Shown: positions 4,671 through 56,134, counted from the stretch's first letter. The stretch is DNA of 64,000 nt from an uncultured Hyphomicrobiales bacterium (GCA_964344345.1 CAYFNC010000011.1:18325-82324); one strand, 5' to 3'. Made by a program: numbers and translations. Notes: generated by a model from the sequence alone, not told the origin.

Positions 4671-4985
4671 CTAATGGCCCTTTCGCCTCGGCAGGTACCC
4701 GTCCGCGCCCAGCTTTTCGAAATGGCGCGAAACGTCCGGATGGTCCACGGGGCCGCGGGTCTCGTCCGGCTCCAGGTTCCGTTCGGCAACATAGGCGCGC
4801 GCGTCCGCGCCGTCCATCAGAACGTGGTACCAGGGGCGGTCCTTGGGCGGGCGGGTCTTGGCGACCTGGTCGTACCAGTCGTCCGACCCCTTGAAGTACG
4901 GGTCCACATCGAGCACCACGCCCCGGTATCCGAATAGCCGGTGGTGGATCAACTGCCCCACGTGGAATTTGGCGCGCGTCTGCAT
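4671..4985 (-). CDS. hspQ: heat-shock protein HspQ / hemimethylated-DNA-binding (YccV) family
   Basis: FHVGQLIHHRLFGYRGVVLDVDP...PWYHVL is the YccV/HspQ signature. Only 3 nt separate it from queD. Confidence 0.8.
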   Translation of the reverse strand: MQTRAKFHVGQLIHHRLFGYRGVVLDVDPYFKGSDDWYDQVAKTRPPKDRPWYHVLMDGADARAYVAERNLEPDETRGPVDHPDVSRHFEKLGADGYLPRRKGH

Positions 4986-4992
4986 GGCCGGA

Positions 4993-6234
4993 TCAGTGAA
5001 CCTGGGCGGACTCTTCGGCCATTATATGGGTATTCGCGTCCGCCGTCGCCGTCACCGGAAGGGAAAAGGAGAAGACGCTGCCCTCGCCCAAGGCCGACTC
5101 GCACCGGATATGCCCGTCCATGCGCCTGAGCAGGGATTGAACGTAGGCGAGCCCCATGCCCTCGCCCTCGGTGTCCTGCTTGCCGACGCGCTTGAAAACC
5201 TCGAACACGTGGGGAATGTCCGCCTCTGCGATGCCGCGCCCGGTGTCGCGGATGCGGAAGACCTGGTATTCCCGCTCCCGCTCCGCCATGACGGAGATTT
5301 CCCGGGAGCCGTCCGCGGACATGAACTTGACCGCGTTGCCGAGCAGGTTGCCGACGACCTGCTCCATGGCGGTCCTGTCCGCCATGACCGGGGGCAAGGG
5401 GCCGACGTCGACGGTGATTCCCTTTTCCTCGATCTGGAAGGCGAGCGCGTCCAGGGTTTCCTTGACCAGCGCGTTCATGTCGATGGTCTCGGGACGCATT
5501 TCCCGCTGGCCGGCCTTGGAGTAGTCCAGAATCGTATCCACCAGATGCATCATCCGCGCGGAGGAGCTGGCGATGTAGCCGAGCGATTCGGCGAGTTCGT
5601 CGTCCAGGCATTTCCCGATCGCGGCGCGCTGCCTGTCGGAAAGGGTCTGTTTGATCTCGTCCAACTGCTTGCGCGCTTCGTCCAGGTTGGATTTCGCGAT
5701 CTCGCCGAATCCGATGATGCTGACCAGCGGCGAGCGAAGGTCGTGCGACACGATGCTGGCGTAGCGCGGCACGTCCCGGTTCATCTGGCCCAACTCCTGG
5801 ATCAGGCGGTGCAGGTCCTCCTCGACCTCCTTGCGGACGGCGATTTCGGTGTTGAGCTTATGGATCTGCTCCTCCTGGCGGCGGCGCTCCTCGAGGATCG
5901 CCGGGATCAACCTGCGGAACAGAAGCCCGATCACCAGAACCGCGACGATGACGTTCAGGATTTTCGGAATGAAGACGATGTGGGGCTGGACCAGGAAGTC
6001 GAAAATCTCCTTGGGCAGCATCCCGACCCTGGCGGTGTACCAGGTCCCGAAGAAGGCGCTTTCGAACAGGCTGCGGAAGGCGTCGATGGCGAGCACCAGA
6101 AGCAGGACGGCGAAGGCCTTGCCGATGTCCCCGCTCGATTTGCGGTGCTTGTAATAGAACGCAAGGATCAACGCCCACAGGACGATCAGTATCCAGTAGG
6201 TCACGGGCGTCAGGATAGAGAAAATTTCGGCCAT
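4993..6234 (-). CDS. membrane-bound sensor histidine kinase
   Basis: Multi-TM N-terminus, a coiled linker, H-box SIVSHDLRSPL, N-box GNLLGNAVKF and G-boxes (DTGRGI, GEGMGL). Confidence 0.85.
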   Translation of the reverse strand: MAEIFSILTPVTYWILIVLWALILAFYYKHRKSSGDIGKAFAVLLLVLAIDAFRSLFESAFFGTWYTARVGMLPKEIFDFLVQPHIVFIPKILNVIVAVLVIGLLFRRLIPAILEERRRQEEQIHKLNTEIAVRKEVEEDLHRLIQELGQMNRDVPRYASIVSHDLRSPLVSIIGFGEIAKSNLDEARKQLDEIKQTLSDRQRAAIGKCLDDELAESLGYIASSSARMMHLVDTILDYSKAGQREMRPETIDMNALVKETLDALAFQIEEKGITVDVGPLPPVMADRTAMEQVVGNLLGNAVKFMSADGSREISVMAEREREYQVFRIRDTGRGIAEADIPHVFEVFKRVGKQDTEGEGMGLAYVQSLLRRMDGHIRCESALGEGSVFSFSLPVTATADANTHIMAEESAQVH

Positions 6235-27056: not shown

Positions 27057-28373
27057 ATGACTGGGAGAACGAGCTTGGCGATTAGCGACGACGACCTATT
27101 GCAAAGGATAGGTGTCCTGATCAACAAGCGCGCCACATATTTGGATGCCCAGGAACCGCTCGAAGAGGCGTGGGATCGACGCATCGGCAATCCCCCGGCG
27201 ATCTGCAATCTTCTCGCAGTGCTGTATACGTATAAAGGCCAATTTTCCAAGGCTTCCAACATCCTGGAGCAAATAGAGCCTTCGATCACTCTTGGAAATG
27301 TGTATTTCCTCGAGGGACGATACGAAGACGCCCAAAGCGCATATGAGATCGCGACGCGCGCGGCCCCTCTCGAGCCCGGCAAGCCGACGGCCCTTGTCCC
27401 GGGCGGCCTCGCCATAAACTATTTCGGGGAGTTGTCCGCCAACGTGGACGCCGCGCTCAGGGCCGATCAACTCGGCCTGCTCCCCCCGCACAACGAATTG
27501 ACGCTGCCTTCGCAAGGCCGCTTCGCGGATTCGACCCTTCGAAAAATCTGGGCCCAAGCGGGCGTGGGGGTTGGCGACGCAGTGAGGCACAAGATCCATG
27601 TCGACGTCATGCCGATAGCCGATGGACGGTTGCTTCCGAGGGTGTTGGCCCACGCCACCTATCGCACCGGACGCCCCTTAATCTCGATGGAATGGGAATC
27701 GACGCATTGGGATTTTCTGAAGCTTCGCCGCGGCGACCCCTTTGTCGTCATGCACGTCCGCGAGAACGCCAGTTACGAAGAAGATGAAATTCCCTGGACG
27801 CCCAACAAATTCCGCAACGCGGATCCCATGACCTATGTCTCCGCCGTCGAACACCTGACCTCGCTGGGCGTCAAGGTGTTCCGCATCGGGGACAAGAGCA
27901 TGTCGGCGATGCCTTCCATGCCCGGTTTTTTCGATCTCGCCACGTTGCCGGATCCCCGCCCCGACTGGGTCGATGTGTTCCTGGCGGCGAACGCGCTGTT
28001 TTTTTTGGCGACGGCGTCCGGCCCCTACACCCTGGCCTACCATTTCGGAACCCCGATTCTTGGAACGAACTGGTTTCCGCTTGGGTGGTGGCTCTATGAC
28101 GACAACCAGATGCTCATACACAAAACGTTCAAGAAGCGCTCCATGCCGGAAACCATGAAGCCGCCATGGTTCACGAACCTCCGCCCGGACATTCTGGACC
28201 CGGAAGAAACGGTCATAGACAACACATCCGATGAAATTCTCGAGGCCGTGAAGATCATGCTCAATCGTCCCGCGACCGCTTCGCCAACGCCCCCCGCCGC
28301 CGATCCGCTGGGAATCGGCTTTGCGTCGCGTTTGGCCTATCCCGAACATCGGGTCATGGAGCTCTGGGGATGA
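27057..28373 (+). CDS. TPR-containing protein with a C-terminal glycosyltransferase-like region (possibly TIGR04372-like)
   Basis: The N-terminal third is TPR-like (LGNVYFLEGRYEDAQSAYEIA). The C-terminal part (VFRIGDKSM...DVFLAANALFFLATASGPYTLAYHFGTPILGTNW) resembles the donor-binding half of GT-B-like enzymes. The family assignment is from memory only. G+C is lower than in the neighbours. Confidence 0.45.
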   Translation: MTGRTSLAISDDDLLQRIGVLINKRATYLDAQEPLEEAWDRRIGNPPAICNLLAVLYTYKGQFSKASNILEQIEPSITLGNVYFLEGRYEDAQSAYEIATRAAPLEPGKPTALVPGGLAINYFGELSANVDAALRADQLGLLPPHNELTLPSQGRFADSTLRKIWAQAGVGVGDAVRHKIHVDVMPIADGRLLPRVLAHATYRTGRPLISMEWESTHWDFLKLRRGDPFVVMHVRENASYEEDEIPWTPNKFRNADPMTYVSAVEHLTSLGVKVFRIGDKSMSAMPSMPGFFDLATLPDPRPDWVDVFLAANALFFLATASGPYTLAYHFGTPILGTNWFPLGWWLYDDNQMLIHKTFKKRSMPETMKPPWFTNLRPDILDPEETVIDNTSDEILEAVKIMLNRPATASPTPPAADPLGIGFASRLAYPEHRVMELWG

Positions 28374-29344
28374 CGGCGAACGCAACGCCCAAGGACCTGT
28401 TCCGCGCCATGCTTCGCATCCGCCGGATCGAGGAGGCCATCGCCGAGCGCTATCCGGCGCCGACCCCGGCCGAGCAGACGATCCGCTGCCCCGTGCATCT
28501 GTCCATCGGGCAAGAGGCGGTTCCGGTGGGCGTCGCGGCCGCGCTTCGCCCGGACGACAAATTCGCGCTCACCCATCGCTGCCACGCCCAGTACCTGGCC
28601 AAGGGCGGCGCGTTGAAGCCGATGATCGCCGAGATGCTCGGCCGCGAGACCGGGTGTTGCGGCGGGCGCGGGGGCTCCATGCATCTGCACGACGCCGAGG
28701 CCGGGGTGATGCTGAGCCTGCCCATCGTGGCCAGCGCGATTCCCATCGGAGTCGGAGTCGCGCTCGCGCTCCGCCAACAAGGGTCCGACGCCGTGGCCGC
28801 CGCGTTCTTCGGCGACGGCGCCGTCGAGGAAGGCGTCTTCCACGAAAGCATGAACTTCGCGGCGCTAAAAAAGCTGCCCATCCTGTTCGTGCTCGAGAAC
28901 AATCTCTACTCGGTCTACACCGGGCTTCCCGACCGCCAGCCGGACCGCCCCCTGGCCGACCTGGGCAAGGCCCACGCCGTTCCCGTCATCCAAGGCGACG
29001 GCAACGACGTCCGGTTCGCCCTGGACGCGGCGCGGGAGGCGACGGCGCGGGCCCGCGCCGGAGGCGGGCCCACGTTGATGGTGTTCGACACCTACCGCTG
29101 GCGCGAGCACTGCGGCCCCAACTACGACAACGACATCGGATACAGGACCGAGGCCGAATTCCTGGAATGGAAGGCCCGTTGCCCCATCGAACGACTTCGA
29201 AAATCGCTGGGCCTTTCCGAGGCGGAAGAGGCCGCCATGGAGCGCGCCATCCAGACCGAGATCGAGGACGCCTTCGCCTTCGCCGAGGCGTCCCCCCACC
29301 CCGACCCCGACACCGCCGGAGACATGGTCCTATGCCCGTCCTGA
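28370..29344 (+). CDS. thiamine-diphosphate-dependent 2-oxoacid dehydrogenase/acetoin-type E1 component, alpha subunit
   Basis: HLSIGQEAV, GRETGCCGGRGGSMHL, FFGDGAVEEGVFHESMNFAAL.KLPILFVLENNLYS (TPP-binding GDG...NN motif). ATGA overlap with the preceding gene. Confidence 0.8.
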   Translation: MTANATPKDLFRAMLRIRRIEEAIAERYPAPTPAEQTIRCPVHLSIGQEAVPVGVAAALRPDDKFALTHRCHAQYLAKGGALKPMIAEMLGRETGCCGGRGGSMHLHDAEAGVMLSLPIVASAIPIGVGVALALRQQGSDAVAAAFFGDGAVEEGVFHESMNFAALKKLPILFVLENNLYSVYTGLPDRQPDRPLADLGKAHAVPVIQGDGNDVRFALDAAREATARARAGGGPTLMVFDTYRWREHCGPNYDNDIGYRTEAEFLEWKARCPIERLRKSLGLSEAEEAAMERAIQTEIEDAFAFAEASPHPDPDTAGDMVLCPS

Positions 29345-30405
29345 CCGTCGCTGAGGCCATCCGCGAGGCCACGGACATCTGCCTGGGCCGCGACGAGCGG
29401 GTCTTCCTGATGGGGGAAGGCGTCGCCGATCCCAAGGCCATCTTCGGCACCACCGCGGGACTGGCGGAAAAGTACGGGCCCGAGCGGGTGTTCGAGACCC
29501 CTGTCTCGGAGAACGGCTTCACCGGCGTCGCCGTCGGCGCGGCCATGATGGGGCGGCGTCCCATCGTCGTCCATCAACGGGTGGACTTCGCCCTGCTCTC
29601 CCTCGAACAGCTTTTCAACAACGCGGCCAAGATCTGCTACGTCACCCGGGGCGAGCACACGGTTCCCCTGGTGGTCCGCATGATCGTCGGCCGGGGTTGG
29701 GGCCAAGGCCCGGCCCACTCCCAAAGCCTGGAGACCCTGTTTTCCTCGGTCCCGGGCCTGAAGGTCTGCATGCCCGCGAGCCCCAAGGAGGCCAAGGGCA
29801 TGATGATCGCGGCGGTCGAGGACCCCAACCCGGTCATCATGCTGGAGCACCGCTGGGTCCATTACGTCAAGGGCGATGTCCCCAAAGGACATTACGCGAC
29901 GCCGTTGGAAGGGCCGTTCCGGGTCCGCGAGGGCGGGGACGCCACCGTGGTCGCCACCGGCTACATGCGCTACGAGGCGCAACAGGCGGCGGACGCCCTG
30001 GCGGAACAGGGCGTCGAGGTCGAAATCCTGGACCAGGCCGTCCTGCGTCCCCTGAACGCGGAGCCCGTCGTCCGATCGGTCGCGAAAACCGGACGGCTTC
30101 TGGTTGTTGACAGCGGTTGGGTCCAGCACGGCCTGGGCGCCGAGATCATCTCCCGGGTGGTGGAGCGCGACCCGTCGCTGTTCGCCCGCAGGCCGAGGCG
30201 GCTCGGCCTCGGGGACCATCCGACGCCGTCGAGCCGCGTTCTGGCCGAGCGTTTCTATCCCACCTCGGTGGAGATCGCGTCCACCCTCGCCGACATGCTG
30301 GACCTTCCCGAAGACGCGCGCCGGGCGGTCGAGGATAGGCTGCGGGAGGAGCGCCGAGCCCTGCCCATCGACGTGCCCAACCCGGCGTTCATGGGGCCGT
30401 TCTGA
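29332..30405 (+). CDS. TPP-dependent E1 component, beta subunit
   Basis: VFLMGEGV....IFGTT.GL.EKYGPERVF.TP.SENGF.G.A.GAA..G.RP and the C-terminal transketolase-like domain. Overlaps the alpha subunit by 13 nt. Confidence 0.8.
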   Translation: MPVLTVAEAIREATDICLGRDERVFLMGEGVADPKAIFGTTAGLAEKYGPERVFETPVSENGFTGVAVGAAMMGRRPIVVHQRVDFALLSLEQLFNNAAKICYVTRGEHTVPLVVRMIVGRGWGQGPAHSQSLETLFSSVPGLKVCMPASPKEAKGMMIAAVEDPNPVIMLEHRWVHYVKGDVPKGHYATPLEGPFRVREGGDATVVATGYMRYEAQQAADALAEQGVEVEILDQAVLRPLNAEPVVRSVAKTGRLLVVDSGWVQHGLGAEIISRVVERDPSLFARRPRRLGLGDHPTPSSRVLAERFYPTSVEIASTLADMLDLPEDARRAVEDRLREERRALPIDVPNPAFMGPF

Positions 30406-30512
30406 CCCCCTTGGCGTTTCCACCGGTAACGCCATATTAAGGACGGCGCGGGTATGTTGACGTGGGCGATCGCCCCGGTCGCATCCGGACGCGTCCCAAG
30501 GAGGCATGGAGC

Positions 30513-31307
30513 GTGAGCGGTTTTCAGGAGCTGCCCGACATCATCCGCGACGGCTTGTCCCGGGCCGCCGAGGCGCCGCGCCGCGAGGGCCCCCTCGGCC
30601 CGAGCCCCAAAAGCGTTCCCATCGAAGCCGCCGAGAACGGAGCGACCCTGTTCCTGGCCGTCGATCCCAAAGACCACACGGTCATCGAAGCGCGCCATTC
30701 GAAGGCGAAGGATCCGGTCGAGCGGGCCGTCCTGGATTGTTTCTGCCATGAGATCGAGGGCCTGCCGCTTCAGGAGGCTTGCGACCATGGGAGCCTGAGA
30801 ACGCTTCACCGCTTGGCTTCCCCAGTAGCCGCGCGCCCCGCGCCCGGCATCATGACGCCCCGGACCGTCCATCCCGCATTCGCCACACCGGAAAGGTTGA
30901 TCGACAAGGCGCGGGACGCCTATCTGCGGTCCCGGAGCCTCGATGGTATCGACGCCGTCTATAAACCCCGCCCGTCCGACGCCTGGATGGGAAAAAGCCG
31001 CGACGCGCGGCTGGCCGCGGTTTCAAAAAGCGTCCAGGCGTTCCTGAGCGACCGGGACCTTCCCGCAAGCGCCGTCGAGGCGGACCATATCGACGACGAC
31101 GCCTTCCATCGACCCGTCCGCGTCTTTGTCGCCTTCGGCGACGCGATCCCTTCCGAACAAAAGCCCATTCTCTCCCGGGAGCTAGAGGCTTGGCTCAAGA
31201 CCGAAGTCGAGGACCGCCTGGAGCTCTACAACCTGACCGAGGCGGACGCCAACAAGATCCGCGTGATCGGGGGCGCGACCCGTGGCGGGGCCAAGGAGGT
31301 CGCATGA
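30513..31307 (+). CDS. hypothetical protein (264 aa), no family recognised
   Basis: GTG at 30513 lies 8 nt after an AAGGAGG Shine-Dalgarno sequence (alternative start 30462). The end overlaps the radical-SAM ATG (ATGA). Confidence 0.5.
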   Translation: MSGFQELPDIIRDGLSRAAEAPRREGPLGPSPKSVPIEAAENGATLFLAVDPKDHTVIEARHSKAKDPVERAVLDCFCHEIEGLPLQEACDHGSLRTLHRLASPVAARPAPGIMTPRTVHPAFATPERLIDKARDAYLRSRSLDGIDAVYKPRPSDAWMGKSRDARLAAVSKSVQAFLSDRDLPASAVEADHIDDDAFHRPVRVFVAFGDAIPSEQKPILSRELEAWLKTEVEDRLELYNLTEADANKIRVIGGATRGGAKEVA

Positions 31308-32416
31308 GCGAAAACGGCGGCCTGATCCTGGACGGCACCAAGATCGCCTGGCACATGGAGCGCGTCGAGGCTTGGGAGCGGGGCGAACGCATCGCGCCCA
31401 TCACCATCGACATGGCACTGACCCGATCGTGCAACTACGCCTGCGTCTATTGCTTCGCCATGCTGCAGGAAAACGCGCGCAAGATCATCGACCAGAGGGT
31501 GATCCATGATTTCCTTGAGGACTGCGCCGAGATAGGCGTCAAGGGCATCAGCCTGGTCTCGGACGGCGAAAGCACCATCAGCCCCGTGTTCAAGGACACC
31601 ATCGTCCGGGGCGGCGAGCTGGGGCTGTCCATGGCCTGCGGCACAAACGCCTTCGTGCTCAATCGGCGGCTGCTCGAGGAGATCATGCCGCACCTGACGT
31701 ACATCCGCGTCAACATCTCGGCCGGGGAGCGCGACCGCTACGCCGAGATCATGGGCGTGCAGCCCGAATGGTTCGACCGGGTCCGCCGCAACATCCAGGA
31801 CATGGTGGACATCAAGAGATCCAAGGGCCTCGACGTCACCATCGGCATGCAGATGGTCCTCATGCCCGACTTCAGGGACCAGATCCTTCCGCTGGCCCGG
31901 CTGGGCCAGGAGCTCCGCCCCGACTACCTGGTGTACAAGCACTGCTCGGACAGCGAGGACGGCGGGCTCGGCGTCGATTACGGCGCCTACGACGCCCTTC
32001 ACGACCTGCTCCGCGAGGCGGAGGCCTTTTCGGACGAGTCGTTCGAGGTCATCGTGAAGTGGTCCAAGGTGAGGGACGGCGACGCCAGAAGCTACCAACG
32101 ATGCTACGGCCCGCCGTTCATCATCCAGCTTTCGGGCTCTGGCCTGGTCGCGCCCTGCGGCATGCTGTTCAACGAGCGCTACAAGAAGCTCCACATCGGC
32201 AACATCTGCGACGAGCGGTTCCGGGACATCTGGGCGTCCGACCGTTACTGGGACGTCATGAACTACCTGGCCTCGCCTCGATTCGACGCGCAGAACATGT
32301 GCGGGACGCTGTGCATGCAGCACAAGGTCAACGAGGCCCTGGACGCCCACATGAAACGGAATATCACCCTGGAGCCGCCCACGGGTCCGGCGCCCCAGCA
32401 CCTCAATTTCATCTGA
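31304..32416 (+). CDS. radical SAM enzyme (paralogue 1) with a Cys-rich C-terminal extension
   Basis: CNYACVYC (CX3CX2C) lies near the N-terminus after ITIDMALTRS. Further conserved Cys are present (RCYGPPF, APCG, CGTLCMQHKVN). The C-terminus ...PQHLNFI is shared with paralogue 2. Confidence 0.8.
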   Translation: MSENGGLILDGTKIAWHMERVEAWERGERIAPITIDMALTRSCNYACVYCFAMLQENARKIIDQRVIHDFLEDCAEIGVKGISLVSDGESTISPVFKDTIVRGGELGLSMACGTNAFVLNRRLLEEIMPHLTYIRVNISAGERDRYAEIMGVQPEWFDRVRRNIQDMVDIKRSKGLDVTIGMQMVLMPDFRDQILPLARLGQELRPDYLVYKHCSDSEDGGLGVDYGAYDALHDLLREAEAFSDESFEVIVKWSKVRDGDARSYQRCYGPPFIIQLSGSGLVAPCGMLFNERYKKLHIGNICDERFRDIWASDRYWDVMNYLASPRFDAQNMCGTLCMQHKVNEALDAHMKRNITLEPPTGPAPQHLNFI

Positions 32417-32428
32417 TCGGTAACGCCC

Positions 32429-33526
32429 ATGCCCGACGCTTTTCGCATCGAAAGCCACAAGCTGATCTACCACCCCGAACGGGTCGCCCAACTTCAAGCG
32501 GCGGGCGAGGATTGGGAGAAGGCGAAACACGTCTATCCCATCTACGTCGAGATCACCCCCATCGGGGCCTGCAACCACCGCTGCGGGTTCTGCGCCTTCG
32601 ACTACGTCGGTTACAAGCCCGTCGCGCTCGACGTCGATCTGTTGCGCGAGCGGCTTCCGGAAATGGGGCGGCTCGGCGTCAAAAGCGTCATGTACGCGGG
32701 CGAGGGCGAGCCGCTGTTGCACAAGAAGATCAACGAAATCGTCGCCATCACCGAGGACGCGGGGATCGACGCCTCGTTCACCACCAACGCGACCGTCCTG
32801 CCCGACGGCTTCGCCGAGGAGGCCTTGCCAAGGATTTCGTGGATCAAGGCGTCGATCAACGCGGGGAACGCGGACACCTACGCCAAGATACACGGGACCA
32901 AGGCGCGGGATTTCGACAAGGCCCTGGAGAACCTGCGGACCATGGTCGCGGCTCGGAACGCGCAAGGCTCGGACTGCGTTCTCGGCGCCCAGATTCTTTT
33001 GCTGCCCGAGAACGAGGGCGAAATCGAGGCCCTGGCGCGGATCTGCCGCGACGACGTGGGCCTGGACTACCTGGTGGTGAAGCCCTACTCCCAGCACCAT
33101 TCCTCCATCACCCAGAAATACGCGAACCTGGAGTACACGTCCTTCCAGGACCTGGAAAAAGGCCTGGAGGGAATGAGCACGGCCGATTTCTCGCTGGTCT
33201 TCCGCAGCGCGACCATGCGCAAGTACACGGAAACCGACCGCTATCCCCGCTGCTATTCGGTGCCTTTCCTGTGGGCCTACGTGATGGCGGACGGGACGGT
33301 TTCGGCGTGCGGCGCCTACCTGCTGGACGAAACGTTCGATCTCGGAAACATCCAGGACCAAACCTTCGAGCAAATCTGGATCGGTGAGAAGCGCCGCAAG
33401 AACTTCGAATTCGTCCGCAACGAGTTGAACATCGATCAGTGCCGCCGCAACTGCCGCATGGACGAGGTCAACCGCTACCTCCACCAGCTCATGGACGCGC
33501 CCCCGCCGCACGTGAATTTCATCTGA
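32429..33526 (+). CDS. radical SAM enzyme (paralogue 2) with a Cys-rich C-terminal extension
   Basis: CNHRCGFC (CX3CX2C), RCYSVPF, SACG, CRRNCRMDEVN and the C-terminus ...PPHVNFI. Lies 12 nt after paralogue 1. Confidence 0.8.
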   Translation: MPDAFRIESHKLIYHPERVAQLQAAGEDWEKAKHVYPIYVEITPIGACNHRCGFCAFDYVGYKPVALDVDLLRERLPEMGRLGVKSVMYAGEGEPLLHKKINEIVAITEDAGIDASFTTNATVLPDGFAEEALPRISWIKASINAGNADTYAKIHGTKARDFDKALENLRTMVAARNAQGSDCVLGAQILLLPENEGEIEALARICRDDVGLDYLVVKPYSQHHSSITQKYANLEYTSFQDLEKGLEGMSTADFSLVFRSATMRKYTETDRYPRCYSVPFLWAYVMADGTVSACGAYLLDETFDLGNIQDQTFEQIWIGEKRRKNFEFVRNELNIDQCRRNCRMDEVNRYLHQLMDAPPPHVNFI

Positions 33527-33737: not shown

Positions 33738-33813
33738 GTCCCCTTCGTCTAGAGGCCTAGGACACCGCCCTCTCACGGCGGCAACAGGGGTTCGAATCCC
33801 CTAGGGGACGCCA
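33738..33813 (+). tRNA. tRNA-Glu (anticodon CUC), CCA encoded
   Basis: GTCCCCTTCGTCTAGAGGCCTAGGACACCGCCCTCTCACGGCGGCAACAGGGGTTCGAATCCCCTAGGGGACGCCA is near-identical to E. coli tRNA-Glu except for the anticodon loop CUCUCAC. Confidence 0.92.
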
Positions 33814-33990: not shown

Positions 33991-35790
33991 TCAGAGACGC
34001 TCCTTGACGTAGGAGCCGGGCGCGGGCTCGATGGGCTTGTAGACGCCACAGCCTTCCTCGCGGGCGGCGACCATGTCCTTGCCCGAAAGCTTGCGCATCC
34101 ACGCGTCCCAATCCGGCCACCAGGAGCCCTCTTTCTCCACCGACTTCTCGAGCCAGGCGTCGGGGTCCTTGGGCGGCTTGCGGTCGTTGACCCAGTAGCA
34201 GTACTTGTTGCCCGCGGGCGGGTTGATCACGCCGGCGATGTGGCCCGACGCCGCCAGCACGAAGCGGTTGGGGCCGCCAAGCAACTGGGTGCCCTTGTAG
34301 GTGGACAGCCACGGCGCGATGTGGTCCTCGCGGGCCGACAGGAAGTACGTCGGGGTCTTGATCTTGCCGAGATCGATGGGAACGTCGCCCAGCACGATCC
34401 CGCCCGGGTCCTTCAGACGGTTCTTCTGGTAGAAATTCCGGAGATAGAAGCTGTGCATCACGGCGGGCATGCGGGTCGAGTCCGAGTTCCAGAACAGAAG
34501 GTCGAACGGGAACGGATCCTTGCCCAGCAGGTAGTTGCTGACCACGAAGGACCAGATCAGGTCGTTGGCGCGCAGCATGTTGAAGGTGCCCGCCATTTCC
34601 GAGCCTTCGAGATAGCCGCGCTCGCTCATCTTCTTCTCGAGGAAGCAGATGGTCTCCTCGTCGATGAAGACGCCCAATTCGCCGGGCTCGGAGAAGTCCA
34701 TCATGGTGGTGAGGAAGGTGGCGCTCTTGATCCGGTCGTCGCCCTTGGCGGCGCAGTAGGCGAGCGTGGAGGCCAGAAGCGTGCCGCCGATGCAGTAGCC
34801 GATGGCGTTGACTTCGGGAACGCCGGTGGCCTTCTCGATCACGTCGATCGCGACGGTGGTGCCCTCGATCACGTAGTCGGCGAAGCTCTTGTTCGCGAGA
34901 CGCTCGTCCGGGTTGACCCACGAGATCATGAAACAGGTGTGGCCCTGGTCCACCGCCCACTTGACCAGCGAGTTCTTCTCGCGGAGGTCCATGATGTAGA
35001 ACTTGTTGATCCAGGCCGGGACGAACAGCAGCGGGCGCTTCAGCACCTTGTCGGTGGTCGGCGTGTACTGGATCAGCTGCATCAGGTCGTTCTGGAAGAT
35101 CACCTTGCCCTTGGTGGTGGCGATGTTTTCGCCGATGGTGAAGGCGTCCATGTCGGTCATGCTGACGCGGAGCGAGCCCTTGCCCCGCTCCAGGTCGCCC
35201 AGCATGTTCTTCAGGCCGTTCAGCAGGTTCTCGCCGCCGGTCTCGATGGTGGTGCGCAGAACCTCGGGATTGGTCATCACGAAGTTGGTGGGCGAGAAGG
35301 CGTCGATGAACTGGCGGGTGTAGAAGTCCACCTTCTGGGCGGTCTTCTCGTCCAGGCCGTCCACGTTGTTGACGGTGGACTGCATCCAGCGCGCGGTCAG
35401 CAGGTAGGACTGCTTCATGAAATTGAAGACTTCGTTCTCGCTCCAGGCCTCGTCCTTGAAGCGGCGGTCTTCGCGCTCGGGCACGATCACGGGCTCGGTC
35501 TCGGCGCCCAGCATGCGGCTGGCCGTGTTCTGCCACAGGTTCAGGTAGTCCTGCCACAGCGACATGCTGGCCTGGGCCAGCTTGCCGGGGTCCGTCATCA
35601 TCTTGGTGGTCATTTCCAGGAAGGCGCTGCCGATGTTCAGGGGATCGGACATCCCGATCGATCCCTCGGCCGCCTGCTTGGTGAGAAATTCGGTCACGAT
35701 CCTCTGGCTGCGCTCGGCGATGTCAGCCATGGACTGGGAAAGCTTTGCAGGATCAGGCATTTGGAAGTTGGCGCCCTGTTGCTCTGCCAT
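33991..35790 (-). CDS. phaC: class I poly(R)-hydroxyalkanoate synthase
   Basis: 599 aa with lipase-box GYCIGG and conserved blocks (LLFVPAWINKFYIMDL, FNMLRANDLIW, W.N.D.TR.P). Confidence 0.92.
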   Translation of the reverse strand: MAEQQGANFQMPDPAKLSQSMADIAERSQRIVTEFLTKQAAEGSIGMSDPLNIGSAFLEMTTKMMTDPGKLAQASMSLWQDYLNLWQNTASRMLGAETEPVIVPEREDRRFKDEAWSENEVFNFMKQSYLLTARWMQSTVNNVDGLDEKTAQKVDFYTRQFIDAFSPTNFVMTNPEVLRTTIETGGENLLNGLKNMLGDLERGKGSLRVSMTDMDAFTIGENIATTKGKVIFQNDLMQLIQYTPTTDKVLKRPLLFVPAWINKFYIMDLREKNSLVKWAVDQGHTCFMISWVNPDERLANKSFADYVIEGTTVAIDVIEKATGVPEVNAIGYCIGGTLLASTLAYCAAKGDDRIKSATFLTTMMDFSEPGELGVFIDEETICFLEKKMSERGYLEGSEMAGTFNMLRANDLIWSFVVSNYLLGKDPFPFDLLFWNSDSTRMPAVMHSFYLRNFYQKNRLKDPGGIVLGDVPIDLGKIKTPTYFLSAREDHIAPWLSTYKGTQLLGGPNRFVLAASGHIAGVINPPAGNKYCYWVNDRKPPKDPDAWLEKSVEKEGSWWPDWDAWMRKLSGKDMVAAREEGCGVYKPIEPAPGSYVKERL

Positions 35791-45213: not shown

Positions 45214-45270
45214 TTTCTCGGCGGAGAATGAATACGGTGCATTGGATTCTTGCATGGGGAGCCTTACGCC

Positions 45271-45675
45271 ATGGAGCTTAACAATCTCCCGCTTTTCGGG
45301 ATCGTCAAGCGGCGCCTGGACTGGCTGACCCAGCGGCAAGAGGTGTTGGCCTCGAATATCGCCAACGCGGACACGCCGGGCCACAAGTCCCGCGACATCG
45401 CCAAGTTCAAGTTCGACGAACTGGTGCGGCGCGAGAAGATGAACCTGAACATGGCGTCGTCGGACGCCGGCCACGTCGGCGGGCGGCGCAAGCGTCTCCG
45501 CGACTGGGCGTCCGAGGAAATCAAGCGGCCCCATGAAACCCTGCCCAACGAGAACTCGGTCGTTCTCGAGGAGCAAATGGGCAAGATGAACGAGACCCAG
45601 GTGATGCACAAGGTCACCACCTCGCTCTACAAGAAGCAACTGCACCTGTTCAAGATCGCGATCGGAAAGGGCTGA
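45271..45675 (+). CDS. flgB: flagellar basal-body rod protein FlgB
   Basis: L.QRQ.VLASNIANADTPG...RD is the rod-protein N-terminal signature. Size and position ahead of flgC fit. Confidence 0.85.
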   Translation: MELNNLPLFGIVKRRLDWLTQRQEVLASNIANADTPGHKSRDIAKFKFDELVRREKMNLNMASSDAGHVGGRRKRLRDWASEEIKRPHETLPNENSVVLEEQMGKMNETQVMHKVTTSLYKKQLHLFKIAIGKG

Positions 45676-45711
45676 CGCGATTACGGCTTCCGGGGATCGG
45701 AGTAACCGGTC

Positions 45712-46122
45712 ATGGATGATTTGCTGAAGACATTTCGTATTTCGGCCGCGGGGATGAAGGCCCAGGGCACGCGCTTGCGCGTCGTGTCCGAGAACATCGC
45801 CAACGCCAACAACGTGGCGTCCTCGCCGGGCGATTCTCCCTACGAGCGCAAGACGGTGATCTTCAAGAACAAGCTGGACAAGGCCATCGGGCTCGACACC
45901 GTCCGGGTCCACCGCATCGCCCAGGAAAAGGGCGGGTTCAAGCGCAGCTACGAGCCCGGGCATCCGCACGCGGACGAGAACGGCTACGTCTTGAAGCCGA
46001 ACGTGAATTCGTTGATCGAAATGATGGACATGCGCGAGGCCCAGCGCTCCTACCAGGCCAACGTGAGCGTGATCAAGGCGTCCCGGGGCATGATCGAGAA
46101 CACCATTGACGTGCTGAAATAG
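45712..46122 (+). CDS. flgC: flagellar basal-body rod protein FlgC
   Basis: ISAAGMKAQ..RL.VVSENIANA.....PG..PY.RK and the C-terminal SNV....EM..M..A.RSY.AN. Confidence 0.9.
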   Translation: MDDLLKTFRISAAGMKAQGTRLRVVSENIANANNVASSPGDSPYERKTVIFKNKLDKAIGLDTVRVHRIAQEKGGFKRSYEPGHPHADENGYVLKPNVNSLIEMMDMREAQRSYQANVSVIKASRGMIENTIDVLK

Positions 46123-46177
46123 TCGTGATGTGCTAAGCTACAGCAATTAGCCGGACCGCGAGGGAAAGGACAAAACG

Positions 46178-46504
46178 ATGGCGAACCCGATTGGCGGCAT
46201 CAACAACGCGATTTCCGCGTACTCCAACACGTCGCGCATGTCCGGCGGCGAAGCGTCCTCGGGGGCCATGGACGCGCGCGATCAGGGAGACGAATTCGCC
46301 GATCTGGTCAAGTCCGCGCTCAAGGAAGCCCAGAAGATCGGGGAGCGCGGCGAACAGATGACCATGGCCGCCATCGCGGACAAGGCCGACATCAACAAGG
46401 TGGTCACCGCCGTGGCCGAAGCCGAAGTCACCCTGCAGACCGTCGTCGCCGTCCGCGACAAGGTGCTCGAGGCCTACAAGGAGATCATCCGCATGCCCAT
46501 GTAG
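46178..46504 (+). CDS. fliE: flagellar hook-basal body complex protein FliE
   Basis: 108 aa with C-terminal ...AV.EAE..LQT.VAVRDK...AY.EI..MP. Confidence 0.85.
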   Translation: MANPIGGINNAISAYSNTSRMSGGEASSGAMDARDQGDEFADLVKSALKEAQKIGERGEQMTMAAIADKADINKVVTAVAEAEVTLQTVVAVRDKVLEAYKEIIRMPM

Positions 46505-46533
46505 GGCGTGGTCTCCGTCTGCGGGAATATCCA

Positions 46534-46800
46534 ATGAACGAGGTAGCGGTTCTAGAGGTCGGGCGCGAAGCGCTGATGGTCATCTTGAAGACCTCCGGCC
46601 CGATTTTGGCCGCCGGCCTGATCATCGGCCTGATCATCGCCCTGTTCCAGGCGCTGACCTCGATCCAGGAAATGACCCTGACCTTCGTGCCCAAGATCAT
46701 CGTGGTCTTCATCTCCATCGTCGTGTTCCTGCCCTACATGATGAGGACGGTCATCGAATTCGCCCACGTCATGTTCGATCGAATCATCGCCTTGGGCTGA
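46534..46800 (+). CDS. fliQ: flagellar export apparatus protein FliQ
   Basis: 88 aa with two TMs. GPIL...L.IGL.I...QA.T.IQE.TL.F.PK is the FliQ signature. Confidence 0.9.
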   Translation: MNEVAVLEVGREALMVILKTSGPILAAGLIIGLIIALFQALTSIQEMTLTFVPKIIVVFISIVVFLPYMMRTVIEFAHVMFDRIIALG

Positions 46801-46806
46801 CGGGGC

Positions 46807-47568
46807 ATGCTTCAGGAATTCCTGTCCGTCAACATCTTCGCCTTTTTTCTGATCTTCGCGCGCATGGGAACCTTGCTCGCGATCATGCCGGGGTTCGGGG
46901 CCAACTACATCCCCATGCGGGCCCGGCTGATCTTCGCGGTGATGGTGACTTTCGTGGTCGCGCCGATCCTCACGCCCGGTCTGCCCGTCGCGCCCGCGGC
47001 GCCGTCGGCCCTGGTTCTGCTGATGGCGGGCGAGGTTTTCGTCGGAGGCTTCTTCGGCCTTTTGGGCCGCATCGTCATGAGTTCGCTCCAGGTCGCCGGC
47101 ACCTTGATTGCCTACTTCTCCTCCATGGCCAACGCCTTCATCAACGATCCCATCGCCGAACAGCAAAGCTCCGCGATCGCGGGCCTTCTCGGCACCATGG
47201 GGCTTTTGCTGATTTTCGTCACCGACCTGCACCACCTGATCCTCGCGGCGGCCATCGACAGCTACAGCCTGTTCGAGCCCGGCCGCCCCCTGCCCTTCGG
47301 CGACTTCAGCGAAATGGCGGTCAGACGTCTCTCGGAAAGCTTCGCGCTGGGGCTGCAGTTCGCCTCGCCGCTGATTCTCACGGCGCTGACTTATTACATC
47401 GGCATCGGCCTTCTGGGACGGCTGATGCCGACGTTGCAGGTGTTCTTTTTCGGCCTGCCGATCCAGATCGCGGTGCAGATTTGGACGATGTCGCTGGTGG
47501 TGTCGGGTATAATGTACGTGTTCCTGAACCAATTTCAGGAAACATTTATTACACTTTTGACGCCATAA
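46807..47568 (+). CDS. fliR: flagellar export apparatus protein FliR
   Basis: 253-aa polytopic protein in the position after fliQ, with the FARMG....MPGFG motif. Confidence 0.85.
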   Translation: MLQEFLSVNIFAFFLIFARMGTLLAIMPGFGANYIPMRARLIFAVMVTFVVAPILTPGLPVAPAAPSALVLLMAGEVFVGGFFGLLGRIVMSSLQVAGTLIAYFSSMANAFINDPIAEQQSSAIAGLLGTMGLLLIFVTDLHHLILAAAIDSYSLFEPGRPLPFGDFSEMAVRRLSESFALGLQFASPLILTALTYYIGIGLLGRLMPTLQVFFFGLPIQIAVQIWTMSLVVSGIMYVFLNQFQETFITLLTP

Positions 47569-47613
47569 TAGTCTCCCAAGGGCTTTTGGCGAGAGGACGC
47601 GGAAAGGCGCGAC

Positions 47614-48696
47614 ATGTCCGAAGACTCCGACGACGCATCAAAAACAGAAGATCCGACCGACAAAAAACTGTCGAAGGGCCGCGACAAGGGCCAGGTCGCC
47701 CAGTCCCAGGAAATCCGGAGTTGGGCCGTCCTGGTCGCGGGCACGCTGGTTCTGACCATGATGTCGCCGTGGTTGATGGGCAACGTGTCCGACGCGGTGA
47801 CGCCCTTCCTTGCGCGTCCCCACACCTATGACCTGGATCCCGGCGACCTGCAGCGCCTGATCGCGAGCGTCACCTCGGATCTCGGGATCATCCTCTGGCC
47901 GGTCTTCGCCCTGATCTCGGTCGCCGCGGTGGCGTCCAACCTGGCCCAGTTCGGCTTGCTTTGGGCCTCGGAAAAGCTCAAGCCCGAACTGAACAAGATC
48001 AGCCCCATCGCGGGCGTCAAGCGCGTGTTCTCGCTCAAGCAGGTGATAGAGTTCGTCAAGGGCATCATCAAGCTGTCCGTCGTGGCCGTGATCGCGCTGG
48101 CCGCCTCTATCCCGCTGATGACCGATCTCGAGTTGGTGCCCGGCTTCCATCTTCTGTTCACGCTCGACAGGCTGTACGACATCGCGATCCGTCTGGCGCT
48201 GGCGACCATCGCGGTGATGGCGGCGGTGGCGTTTCTCGACTACTTGTACCAACGATACGCCTTCATGAAACAGATGCGCATGACAAAGCAGGAAGTGAAG
48301 GACGAGCACAAGTCGTCCGAAGGCGACCCGCAGATCAAGTCCCGCATCCGCAGCCTGCGCATCGAACGCTTCCGCCAGCGCATGTTCTCGGCGCTGTCCG
48401 ATCGCGCCGACGTGGTGGTGACCAACCCGACCCATTACGCCGTCGCGCTTGAGTACAAGATCGACAGCATGCCCGCGCCGGTGCTGGTGGCCAAGGGCGT
48501 GGACCATATCGCCCACCGCATCAAGGAAGTGGCCGAATACAACGAGATTCCCATCGTCGAGAACCCGGCGCTGGCCCGCGCGCTTTATTCCGCCGTGGAG
48601 CTCGAGGACGAAATCCCGCCCGAGCACTACGTCGCGGTGGCCGAGGTCATCGGCTACGTCATGAACCTTAACGACGGACAAAGAAGGGTCCATTGA
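47614..48696 (+). CDS. flhB: flagellar export switch protein FlhB
   Basis: KTE.PT.KKL...R.KGQV..S.E, MTKQEVKDE.K..EGDP.IK.R.R and the autocleavage site NPTHYAVAL are present. Confidence 0.92.
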   Translation: MSEDSDDASKTEDPTDKKLSKGRDKGQVAQSQEIRSWAVLVAGTLVLTMMSPWLMGNVSDAVTPFLARPHTYDLDPGDLQRLIASVTSDLGIILWPVFALISVAAVASNLAQFGLLWASEKLKPELNKISPIAGVKRVFSLKQVIEFVKGIIKLSVVAVIALAASIPLMTDLELVPGFHLLFTLDRLYDIAIRLALATIAVMAAVAFLDYLYQRYAFMKQMRMTKQEVKDEHKSSEGDPQIKSRIRSLRIERFRQRMFSALSDRADVVVTNPTHYAVALEYKIDSMPAPVLVAKGVDHIAHRIKEVAEYNEIPIVENPALARALYSAVELEDEIPPEHYVAVAEVIGYVMNLNDGQRRVH

Positions 48697-54019: not shown

Positions 54020-56134
54020 ATGGACGTTTTTTCAAGGTTCGTCAGCATCGACATGCCCGAAAGCCTCAAGTGCGGGGCCAAGGGCAAGAATCCCGCGTTC
54101 GAGATCAAGATCGTCGCGGACGGCGCGATCCCGTTCCCCCAGGTGATCTTCCACATCCACGGCCAGCAGAAGATCCTCAAGGACGACGCCATCAAGCCAA
54201 AGCGCGGCGGCAAGAAGGGAACCAAGACCTACGCGGTCTCGGTCCCAGCCGACATGATGCGGCCCGGCGAGATCACGGTCCAGGTCGAGGGCTGCAAGAA
54301 GGAGGACTGGCGCAAGTCCGGCGGCGACGACTGGGTCAAGGAATTCAAAACGTTTGAACTGATCGCGCCCCCGAAGAAGCCCCGCGCCAAGGTCAAGGCC
54401 GGGGACGTGAAGATCTACTTCGGCATCCACAAGCACATGCACCAACCCTACTACAACACCACCGACCTGAACTACTGGGACGGAGAGAAGGACGAGATCT
54501 TCGGGTCGCGCGGCGGCCCCTACACCGATTTCATCCCCGCCGCCGTGCGCCAGTATTCGGACGGCGGCCTGCCGCACGCGGGCCTGTCCACCAGCTGGAG
54601 CGGAACCCTGATCGAACAGCTCGACCGCTGCGCCCGCGACGGGCTCTGCGGCGGCCGCTTCGGGGGCTGGAGCGGCGGGTTGCGCTCCCTCGCACAGCAC
54701 AAGACCGAGCGCGGCAACCCCCGCTGCGACTTCACCGCCTTCGGGTTCTACCATCCCCTGATGGCGCTGATCCCGCACCGGGACATCGTCAAGCAGATCC
54801 ACTGGCACCGCGACGTGGTCAAGCAGGCCTTCGGCATCGAGGCCTCGCGCGTTCTGTTCCCGCCGGAAACCGCGTTCCACGTGCGCATGATCCCGGCGCT
54901 GCTGGAAGCCGGGATCGACGCGGTGATCTATGATTCCATCCACCGCTTCCGGGCCTGCGAGGACTACCCCTACGCCGGCATCAACGAGGGCATGCTGCCG
55001 CCGAACGGGGCCGAGCAGGTGAACGAACCCGCGGACGATTGGCTCCAGCTCAACAACATCTGGGCCGGATCGAAAATCGCGCCGTCCATGCTGCGCCCCG
55101 AATACGTGGGCTACACCGATCCCGACGGCAAGGAATACAAGATCATCGCGGTGCCCGCCGAACGCTACATCGGCAACGAGGACGCCCGCGGCGGCTTCGG
55201 CGCGTTGCAGTATCCGGACGTCCTGGGCCAGGTCTACGACCAGGTCGCGGACACCGGGACCTACGATCCCAAGCACCCGCCGTTCTTCCTGTTGCATTCC
55301 GACGGCGACAACCACGGCGGCGGCGCGGACAGCTACTACTACCACAACACCGGTTCGCTGGTGCATTGGCTGCAGCAGGACCCCCGGTTCGAACTGATCT
55401 CGATCCGCGACTACTTGGAAATGTTCCCGCCCGACCCCAAAAAGGTGGTGCACATCGAGCCCGGCTCCTGGGCCGGCGCGGACAACGGCGATCCCCAGTT
55501 CATGAAGTGGTTCAGCCGCTACAACGAGCCCTACTCCCCCGACCTGAACTCGTGGGCGGTGCTGACCGCGATGCAGAACGCGGTCCATTCGTTGGAGGAC
55601 AGCGAGCCGAACCATCCCATGCTCCAGGACGCCGTCCGCCTGATGCTGACCGCCGAGACCAGTTGCTATTGGTACTGGACCGGCCAGCACGTCTGGGACC
55701 AGCAGGTCACCAACGCGGCCAACAAGGGTTACGACGAGCTGAAGTCGTCGGTCGACGCCCTGGTCTCGTCCGGCAAGGACAAGACCGGCCCGACCATCTT
55801 CGCGCCCTGGGTGATTCCGGAAAATCCCGGCGGCAAGAAGTGGGGCCAGGGCTGTCTCGAGGACGCGCCGGAGCAGGGCGTGGTCCAGACCTACGTCTAC
55901 GACATCTCGGGCCTGAAGCGGGTCGATCTGATCCTGCGCACGGCGAACGGCGAGAAGACCCTGAAGATGAAGGACAACGGCGTCTACCCGTCCGAGACCG
56001 GCGCTCAGATCGCCGCCAACTACTACACCTGCGAACTGCCGGTGGGGGCGGGCGACGCGCGCTATTACGTCGAGGCCGAGGACAACAAGGGCAACGTGTC
56101 CCGCAGCGCGCTGGAGCGGGTGTTCCTGGCGTGA
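54020..56134 (+). CDS. glycoside hydrolase family 57-like protein with extra N- and C-terminal beta-rich domains
   Basis: GH57-like conserved regions: HKHMHQPYY (region I), FPPETAF (nucleophile Glu region), HSDGDNHGG (acid/base Asp region), ETSCYWYW (region V). Confidence 0.6.
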   Translation: MDVFSRFVSIDMPESLKCGAKGKNPAFEIKIVADGAIPFPQVIFHIHGQQKILKDDAIKPKRGGKKGTKTYAVSVPADMMRPGEITVQVEGCKKEDWRKSGGDDWVKEFKTFELIAPPKKPRAKVKAGDVKIYFGIHKHMHQPYYNTTDLNYWDGEKDEIFGSRGGPYTDFIPAAVRQYSDGGLPHAGLSTSWSGTLIEQLDRCARDGLCGGRFGGWSGGLRSLAQHKTERGNPRCDFTAFGFYHPLMALIPHRDIVKQIHWHRDVVKQAFGIEASRVLFPPETAFHVRMIPALLEAGIDAVIYDSIHRFRACEDYPYAGINEGMLPPNGAEQVNEPADDWLQLNNIWAGSKIAPSMLRPEYVGYTDPDGKEYKIIAVPAERYIGNEDARGGFGALQYPDVLGQVYDQVADTGTYDPKHPPFFLLHSDGDNHGGGADSYYYHNTGSLVHWLQQDPRFELISIRDYLEMFPPDPKKVVHIEPGSWAGADNGDPQFMKWFSRYNEPYSPDLNSWAVLTAMQNAVHSLEDSEPNHPMLQDAVRLMLTAETSCYWYWTGQHVWDQQVTNAANKGYDELKSSVDALVSSGKDKTGPTIFAPWVIPENPGGKKWGQGCLEDAPEQGVVQTYVYDISGLKRVDLILRTANGEKTLKMKDNGVYPSETGAQIAANYYTCELPVGAGDARYYVEAEDNKGNVSRSALERVFLA

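Follow-up and report, generated by a model that had tools for sequence, protein, structure and literature searches.

The 64,000-nucleotide stretch of DNA that we analyzed (hereafter the window; GCA_964344345.1 CAYFNC010000011.1:18325-82324) comes from an uncultured Hyphomicrobiales bacterium and carries, at positions 27057-33526, a run of six genes which a first-pass annotation had singled out as co-directional and tightly packed. All six open reading frames (ORFs) are indeed on the + strand, and we refer to them in order as g1 (27057..28373), a 438-amino-acid (aa) protein that joins tetratricopeptide repeat (TPR)-like repeats to a TIGR04372 glycosyltransferase domain; g2 (28370..29344; 324 aa), a thiamine diphosphate (ThDP)-dependent E1 alpha subunit of the stand-alone type; g3 (29332..30405; 357 aa), the E1 beta subunit, with the tail ...DVPNPAFMGPF; g4 (30513..31307), a 264-aa accessory protein of an unannotated family with an IscU/SufU-like fold followed by a C-terminal alpha/beta domain; and g5 (31304..32416; 370 aa) and g6 (32429..33526; 365 aa), two radical S-adenosylmethionine (SAM) enzymes denoted here rSAM_A and rSAM_B, respectively. 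The junctions are as first described, with ATGA overlaps between g1 and g2 (28370-28373) and between g4 and g5 (31304-31307), a 13-nt overlap between g2 and g3 (29332-29344) and a 12-nt gap between g5 and g6 (32417-32428); g3 and g4 are separated by a 107-nt gap, and g4 starts at a GTG (30513) with AAGGAGG just 5' of it. Profile searches against Pfam and NCBIfam bore out the domain calls, and g4 had no match in either collection. Five of these genes, g2 to g6, recur together in other genomes amid genes of nucleotide-sugar metabolism, and we consider it likely that they form one sugar-tailoring unit.

We begin with the E1 pair. PF00676 is matched in g2 at 6e-60 and PF02779 and PF02780 are matched in g3, and the ThDP motif that had been pointed out earlier is found as GDG-X26-NN at residues 148-178 of g2. 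Both subunits nevertheless score below the equivalog cut-offs of the pyruvate dehydrogenase (PDH) E1 (272 vs. 393.85 for E1 alpha, TIGR03182; and 257 vs. 321 for E1 beta, NF006667). In line with the earlier statement that the window holds no E2 or E3 partner, an E2 motif (DHRxxDG), a lipoyl motif and an E3 redox motif were all absent from the six frames of the 64-kb window, and E2 and E3 were likewise absent from the neighbour families annotated in 80 rSAM_B loci of other genomes (see below); within the window, only glycosyltransferase and radical-SAM genes adjoin the pair. Stand-alone E1 alpha/beta pairs attach a pyruvate-derived two-carbon (C2) side chain to 4-keto sugars in the cases of Plm8/Plm9 (paulomycose), AviB1/AviB2 (eurekanate) and kosinostatin, and in yersiniose the same step is performed by a different ThDP enzyme, YerE (PMC4802897). 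The sub-threshold PDH scores, the lack of E2 and E3 motifs and this documented precedent support the original assignment to the C2-transfer type, and the sequences thus indicate that g2 and g3 are not the E1 of a dehydrogenase complex; that they perform a C2 carboligation onto a sugar would follow by analogy, and we lean towards it by a little.

The likeness to Plm8/Plm9, AviB1/AviB2 and the kosinostatin pair consists of paired E1 alpha and E1 beta subunits in a region with no E2 or E3 motif, and of a setting amid nucleotide-sugar genes, which is seen here through the orthologues (short-chain dehydrogenase/reductase [SDR], HldE-like, GmhA-like, DegT and NeuB genes). These pairs, however, belong to actinomycete antibiotic pathways that act on thymidine diphosphate (dTDP)-deoxyhexoses and have neither a radical-SAM nor an IscU-like partner, whereas the present cassette, compared by description, has the fixed order E1 alpha-E1 beta-g4-rSAM_A, resides in Gram-negative hosts and has an invariant ...F-x-GPF tail on E1 beta. 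This C-terminus, D-x-P-x3-F-x-G-P-F-COOH, was the same in 27/27 module orthologues (from L004 to L081 in our numbering of loci) and reads DVPNPAFMGPF in g3 (window positions 30373-30405); the conservation was observed across module orthologues. The tail might serve to dock a partner protein.

Both g5 and g6 contain a radical-SAM core (PF04055, 43 and 67 bits, respectively, vs. a gathering threshold of 29.5) and match PF13186 (27.0 and 41.8 bits vs. 21.5), and they align with each other from end to end (26% identity, E 8e-42), so that their description as clear paralogues with a common cysteine pattern and C-terminus holds. The shared features are the CX3CX2C motif (C43/47/50 in g5 and C48/52/55 in g6), four downstream cysteines (RCY..PF,.CG and C...C) and the C-terminus P.H[LV]NFI; the C-terminal cysteines of g5 are C267, C285, C333 and C337, and those conserved in g6 are C206, C275, C294, C338 and C342. 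The full seven-cysteine SPASM motif is lacking, and four C-terminal cysteines are kept in each paralogue family. Because only these four are conserved, the sequences suggest one auxiliary cluster of the twitch type rather than the two of a full SPASM domain, which retains the auxiliary cluster proposed at first and gives up a complete SPASM.

Neither radical-SAM protein reached any of the NCBIfam radical-SAM equivalogs (W-cofactor maturase, MoaA, BlsE, DesII, viperin, NirJ, PqqE and others). The top NCBIfam match of both was TIGR04317 (61 and 74 bits vs. a cut-off of 380), and a prokaryotic viperin identity, which would imply defence, was rejected (40-43 bits vs. 180). The solved structures nearest to g6 are those of BlsE (2.6e-8) and DesII (9e-8); BlsE is a cytosylglucuronate decarboxylase, and both BlsE and DesII act on nucleoside or nucleotide sugars. 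With these two and with BtrN, g5 and g6 have in common the CX3CX2C motif and a C-terminal auxiliary-cluster (twitch/SPASM) region, whereas the similarity to BlsE and DesII is confined to the radical-SAM core (E ~1e-8), the NCBIfam scores are far too low (43 vs. 400 and 39 vs. 450), and all three differ from the present case in that two paralogues occur here in one cluster, one of them with a dedicated IscU-fold partner. The g6 family is large and tight: of 8000 scored candidates, 5804 were homologues, and the top 120 have 61-67% identity and are mostly 365 aa long; their source names are either the generic ‘radical SAM protein’ or, wrongly, MoaA-like.

To follow these genes into other genomes, we scanned one genome per species and obtained 336 relatives of rSAM_B, the best 80 of which were analyzed with 10-kb flanks; the six window proteins were run by tblastn against these 80 loci, all locus ORFs were clustered, and representative neighbours were annotated. 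Orthologues of both E1 alpha and E1 beta (44-57% identity; 47-57% for E1 alpha) were found within 10 kb of rSAM_B in 35/80 loci, and a paralogue of the rSAM_A type was present in 22 of these 35 E1-positive loci vs. 4 of the 45 E1-negative ones. The carriers include Methylomonas, Thiosymbion, Gallionellaceae, Rhodocyclaceae, Comamonadaceae, Magnetococcales, Zetaproteobacteria, Nitrospira, Nitrospina and a Sericytochromatia metagenome-assembled genome (MAG), and the overall distribution spans Alpha-, Beta-, Gamma- and Zetaproteobacteria, Nitrospira, Nitrospina, Desulfovibrionales and this cyanobacteria-related MAG. Co-occurrence in other genomes, chosen beforehand as the test of the cluster, was thus found for g2 to g6, whose adjacency is not fortuitous, and was not found for g1: the idea of all six genes as one conserved unit had to be abandoned, as the link of g1 to the other five is not kept and its closest homologue (68% identity) lies elsewhere.

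The protein encoded between the E1 pair and rSAM_A had at first been described as matching nothing recognizable, and a word-indexed search with g4 returned only itself and one relative of 35% identity, which also lies 3' of a Transketolase_C gene. An exhaustive HMMER search placed g4 in a family of 488 cluster representatives at E<=1e-3 (325 at <=1e-10; 240-450 aa), which rules out an orphan; no Pfam or NCBIfam model covers this family, 4/50 members of which weakly match Pfam NifU_N. Structure prediction of 30513-31307, which had been recommended earlier, gave a confident AlphaFold (AF2) model (50 sequences; predicted local distance difference test [pLDDT] 92), the first ~140 residues of which resemble IscU/SufU (Foldseek 2z7e_B, E 1.5e-5; template-modelling [TM] score for the target 0.66-0.73). 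The fold is that of the IscU/SufU/NifU scaffold, whereas the three cysteine ligands of IscU are not conserved (only C78 and H92 are kept in the family alignment), and in a manual alignment to Escherichia coli IscU, the ligand positions are presumably taken by N, D and T/P. A further difference is the extra C-terminal domain of g4 (residues ~152-254), a profile of which found no relative in the PDB; a Nfu-like identity, guessed from the order of its secondary-structure elements, was dropped on that ground.

In 15 loci, the place between E1 beta and rSAM_A is taken by a separate 112-aa protein, and this protein and the C-terminal domain of g4 are of one family (profile E 1e-14 to 3e-9). The order E1 alpha-E1 beta-(g4 or 112-aa protein)-rSAM_A was found in 16 of the rSAM_B loci, and four further contigs with g4-family proteins again had E1 alpha-E1 beta-g4-rSAM_A; g4 always keeps its place after E1 beta and before rSAM_A. 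Because this order recurs, g4 is a fixed accessory of the E1/rSAM_A pair. On one contig (L088), E1 beta and the g4-like gene have a 106-aa ORF (4787-5107) between them, which matches the N-terminal extension of long (350-450 aa) g4-family members (P0002 residues 1-110), and the g4 family hence exists in split and fused forms; the window does not contain this 106-aa piece.

The rSAM_A proteins themselves fall into subclades that differ in their auxiliary cysteines. The subclade that is accompanied by the 112-aa protein (15 loci) has lost all four (C267F, C285S, C333M and C337P), whereas the subclade with a full-length g4 (the window, L037, L088 and L098) keeps them. A third subclade keeps the cysteines and has no g4. 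The loss was probably one evolutionary event, and since a single event is at issue and the third subclade retains its cysteines without g4, a connection of the IscU-like domain with the auxiliary cluster of rSAM_A is no more than hinted at. Separately, rSAM_A-like proteins of ~38% identity to g5 (seven loci) have an N-terminal extension of 75-110 aa with the motifs NRFG, PGHKLRTSN and FTGPSYRN, which was considered as a possible homologue of the 112-aa protein and g4 and rejected (for the 112-aa protein, hmmsearch E>0.1 and hhalign probability 0.6%).

The neighbours of rSAM_B are overwhelmingly genes of sugar-nucleotide metabolism. A GalE/LegB/RmlB-like SDR epimerase/dehydratase occurs in 64/80 loci, a 510-aa HldE-like protein (N-terminal cytidylyl/adenylyltransferase and C-terminal PfkB kinase) in 50/80 and a GmhA-like SIS isomerase in 46/80; rarer companions are a DegT aminotransferase, NeuB, a CMP-nonulosonate synthetase, GalU, UDP-glucose dehydrogenase, methyltransferases and glycosyltransferases that combine TPR repeats with a GT41 domain (TPR-GT41), and a PglK/MsbA-like ATP-binding cassette (ABC) exporter is present in 13 loci. 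A typical operon (as in L004, L017 and L018) reads GmhA-like, rSAM_B, SDR, HldE-like, E1 alpha, E1 beta, 112-aa protein, rSAM_A. The module thus resembles the ADP-heptose pathway in that, elsewhere, it comes with a GmhA-like isomerase and an HldE-like kinase/nucleotidyltransferase, and differs from it in that both score well under the equivalog cut-offs (87 vs. 209 and 170 vs. 521), the HldE domain order is reversed, and the genes are absent from the window.

In place of E1 alpha/beta, g4 and rSAM_A, a split transketolase (N and C halves) often stands beside rSAM_B, together with another radical-SAM gene and a methyltransferase (L008, L094-L096, L097 and 13/80 loci). E1 and split transketolase were never found together; where the flanks were complete (33 loci), E1 was present in 19 and the transketolase in 8. 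Because these two ThDP enzymes interchange beside rSAM_B amid sugar-nucleotide genes, the constant theme within nucleotide-sugar metabolism is rSAM_B together with a C2-moving ThDP enzyme and another radical-SAM enzyme. Solidesulfovibrio carbinolicus has its rSAM_B orthologue (51% identity) on plasmid pDCAR1 (L097, 66846-97907), surrounded by annotated pseB/pseC/pseF/NeuB genes; this pseudaminic-acid cluster also has a split transketolase, HldE-like and SIS genes and three more radical-SAM genes. The early inference of a glycan or small-molecule pathway fits this context. The accompanying remark that no characterized equivalent could be named also stands, since we found no description of this gene combination in Pfam, in NCBIfam or in the papers returned by a full-text search; a Campylobacter jejuni HS:19 paper that combines radical SAM and heptose concerns unrelated genes.

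We now turn to g1, the least constant member of the locus. As first reported, it couples TPR repeats to a glycosyltransferase-like half and is of lower G+C content (0.589): TIGR04372 is matched at residues 227-404 (1.4e-36; 125.9 bits vs. a curated cut-off of 45, NCBIfam), and TPR-like helical repeats occupy residues ~10-105, where the Pfam TPR matches are weak and fall just below gathering, and a profile of g1 and its homologues matches TPR proteins in the PDB (E 3e-24). Relatives were few in the word-indexed search. After the 68% homologue, the next ones (31% identity, 505 aa) have flaF and a PglD-like acetyltransferase directly 3' in all six longer loci recovered, and a metagenome scan with the g1 alignment yielded 5 loci only, all of one flaF-linked lineage. 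Loci L085, L086 and L089-L093 encode two TPR-GT41 proteins, two TPR proteins of 570 aa and several TIGR04372-domain paralogues (343-360 aa), and also contain flaF, the PglD-like acetyltransferase, methyltransferases and radical-SAM genes (including radical-SAM/SPASM), and look like a large flagellin-glycosylation island of an uncultured lineage.

In Caulobacter FlmG, a TPR part that binds flagellins is fused to a glycosyltransferase domain (PMC7591256). Compared by architecture, g1 and FlmG both have N-terminal TPR and C-terminal glycosyltransferase domains, and the link of g1 relatives to flaF may be a further likeness to FlmG and TPR-GT41 proteins. The differences are that g1 is shorter (438 vs. 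596 aa), has only about three TPR hairpins and carries a TIGR04372-type glycosyltransferase domain, and that the donor of FlmG is pseudaminic acid whereas none is assigned to g1; TIGR04372 occurs in no paper by full-text literature search. In 8/80 loci, the 10-kb flanks of the rSAM_B orthologue contain flagellin genes (by rough reasoning rather than computation, chance would give at most 1 locus), and in 6/80 they contain TPR-GT41 genes. In a Comamonas locus (L065) the order is rSAM_B, SDR, HldE-like, E1, TPR-GT41 and two flagellins, and on one of the further g4 contigs (L098) a TPR-GT41 gene adjoins g4-rSAM_A. The organism of the window is itself flagellated, as it encodes FlgB, FlgC, FliE, FliQ, FliR and FlhB at 45.2-48.7 kb. 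The FlmG-like TPR-glycosyltransferase design, the flaF-linked homologues of g1, the flagellins near rSAM_B and the flagellated host lead us to favour, moderately, a protein acceptor, probably flagellin; for flagellin by name, the call is tentative and a little short of even.

Taken together, these observations make us slightly prefer, by analogy with the systems named above, a pathway in which g2 to g6 would tailor a nucleotide-activated sugar and g1 would transfer the product to a protein, probably flagellin. The substrate would be a nucleoside diphosphate (NDP)-sugar made elsewhere in the genome, perhaps of the heptose type or a similar higher sugar, because cassettes in most other genomes carry their own GmhA-like, HldE-like and SDR genes. 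rSAM_B, which like BtrN, DesII and BlsE has a radical-SAM cluster and, in all likelihood, a single auxiliary 4Fe-4S cluster, would take a hydrogen from the sugar and oxidize or dehydrate it to a keto or deoxy-keto intermediate. E1 alpha/beta would then decarboxylate pyruvate on ThDP and deliver the hydroxyethyl/acetyl carbanion to the keto carbon, which would yield a C2 branch or extension, and rSAM_A together with g4 would subject the branched sugar to another radical reaction (an epimerization, a deoxygenation or a C-C closure). Finally, the TPR repeats of g1 would bind a protein, with flagellin as the likeliest acceptor, and the sugar would be transferred to it.

Several points weigh against this proposal. 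Every chemical step is drawn by analogy, because none of the enzymes of the module has been characterized, and the best-known role of SPASM-type radical-SAM enzymes is in peptide maturation. The closest homologue of g1 adjoins an insertion sequence (IS) fragment, a nucleotidyltransferase and two SDRs and has neither E1 nor radical-SAM neighbours, TIGR04372-like domains occur in just 4/80 rSAM_B loci, and the structural model of g1 (5-sequence alignment; pLDDT 51) is too poor for a fold comparison. In the 64-kb window we found no flagellin gene and no SDR, HldE-like, GmhA-like, NeuB or DegT gene, of which the SDR, HldE-like and GmhA-like genes are the usual companions of rSAM_B. Many of the rSAM_B loci, moreover, resemble lipopolysaccharide (LPS)/O-antigen clusters (ABC exporter, GalU) and not flagellar islands.

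This last point bears on the alternative that the same sugar pathway feeds its product into the LPS O-antigen, core or capsule, in which case g1 would be a polysaccharide glycosyltransferase or unrelated to g2 to g6. The exporters in 13 loci, the GalU, UDP-glucose dehydrogenase and GT2 genes of the rSAM_B loci, the lack of a flagellin gene in the window and the unconserved association of g1 with the other five genes would all be expected under it; however, TPR domains bind proteins, flaF flanks the g1 homologues, several genomes have flagellin or TPR-GT41 genes next to the module, and the ATGA overlap of g1 and g2 implies co-translation. On this balance, we judge a polysaccharide destination rather unlikely, and retain the transfer to a protein by g1 as the preferred outcome.

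One could also envisage a peptide or protein modification, either like that of RiPPs (peptides made on the ribosome and modified after translation) or yielding a protein-derived cofactor, in which the radical-SAM enzymes would act on g4, its 112-aa relatives or another protein, and E1 would process the product. The SPASM/twitch domain of both enzymes and the small conserved protein with a conserved C-terminal motif (D..sLRnLRGIEVK / IRRL) that is always directly upstream of rSAM_A would suit such a role; yet g4 is a confidently folded two-domain protein rather than a leader-core peptide, no protease, RiPP recognition element (RRE) or RiPP-typical exporter is conserved, the neighbours are those of sugar-nucleotide metabolism, and the closest solved relatives act on sugars, all of which makes this explanation improbable. 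More improbable again is a function in metallocofactor or Fe-S maturation, with g4 and the radical-SAM enzymes maturing a metalloenzyme: it would account for the IscU-like fold of g4 and for the top match of both radical-SAM proteins, TIGR04317 being the maturase of a tungsten-cofactor oxidoreductase, but these matches reach only 61 and 74 bits of the required 380, the g4 family is without the IscU cysteine ligands, and no client metalloenzyme is conserved nearby in what is a sugar-biosynthetic context. That a housekeeping acetoin or pyruvate dehydrogenase E1 merely happens to lie beside unrelated radical-SAM genes is scarcely credible, for although g2 and g3 are similar in sequence to PDH E1, they score below its cut-offs, the window has no E2/E3 motif, the E1 beta tail appears specific to the module (it was seen across the module orthologues), and the adjacency and order are found again in Proteobacteria, in Nitrospira and in other phyla, which the co-occurrence data set squarely against chance.

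Beyond the preferred pathway of sugar tailoring and protein transfer, a wider and distinctly unlikely reading is that the trio of rSAM_B, a C2-transferring ThDP enzyme and a second radical-SAM enzyme, which elsewhere is mostly coupled to a nucleotide-sugar pathway of the heptose type, supplies the missing biosynthesis of a bacterial sugar that is higher-carbon, C-branched or carbocyclic, that the IscU-fold g4 represents a new kind of dedicated radical-SAM partner, and that the sugar is a widespread and overlooked decoration of flagellin or LPS. Caryose, as we read its structure, is formally a 3-deoxyheptose with a two-carbon branch at 4-C closed onto C7, and on grounds of chemical plausibility only, caryose and caryophyllose could be the class concerned. 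The biosynthesis of caryose was stated in 2022 to be unknown (PMC9092360). The kinds of enzyme found here are familiar; what is unfamiliar is their combination, the family of g4, the tail on E1 beta, the exchange of E1 for a split transketolase and the breadth of the distribution.

If the sugar pathway is borne out, the cassette would be a widespread one for a structurally unusual sugar of which we found no description, and the pairing of radical-SAM chemistry with ThDP carboligation would amount to a second enzymology in bacterial surface-glycan biosynthesis. It would also give a function to the unannotated family of g4, whose IscU fold is degenerate, and to the large, highly conserved radical-SAM family of g6, and would offer a biosynthetic explanation of flagellar and LPS glycans that shape recognition by phages, predators and hosts. 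Cultivable carriers are Paludibacterium purpuratum CECT 8976, in which the module (L044) has flagellin genes close by, Methylomonas rivi WSC-6 and Solidesulfovibrio carbinolicus DSM 3852.

The cluster is flanked by aroA (TIGR01356, 408 bits), a tRNA-Glu(CTC) gene (33738-33813) and a class I polyhydroxyalkanoate (PHA) synthase gene (phaC), and a flagellar block of flgB, flgC, fliE, fliQ, fliR and flhB (45250-48696) lies 12 kb downstream of it. A promoter scan found nothing, and in an Rfam scan of the window the tRNA alone reached threshold, with no riboswitch or other RNA; a sub-threshold RAGATH-31 match (34015-34068; 32 bits vs. a gathering threshold of 71.8, E 0.003), inside the 3' end of the phaC region, is probably due to chance. 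Further along, a 704-aa ORF (54020-56134) with a G+C content at third codon positions (GC3) of 0.92 was without an NCBIfam match at E<=1e-10.

The position between aroA and tRNA-Glu had prompted the first-pass annotation to propose a genomic island, a view that is not supported by our results: no att-like direct repeats involve the tRNA-Glu, no integrase-like ORF was seen between aroA and phaC, and the sole sign is the composition of g1. g2 to g6 have a GC3 of 0.87-0.88, similar to that of the flanking genes, and g1 alone deviates, with a GC3 of 0.73 vs. 0.86-0.93 in its neighbours. The 68% homologue of g1 (L082, 9660-11299), from another organism of the same metagenome project, adjoins a DUF4096 transposase fragment, and this neighbour, together with the low GC3, hints that g1 moves on its own.

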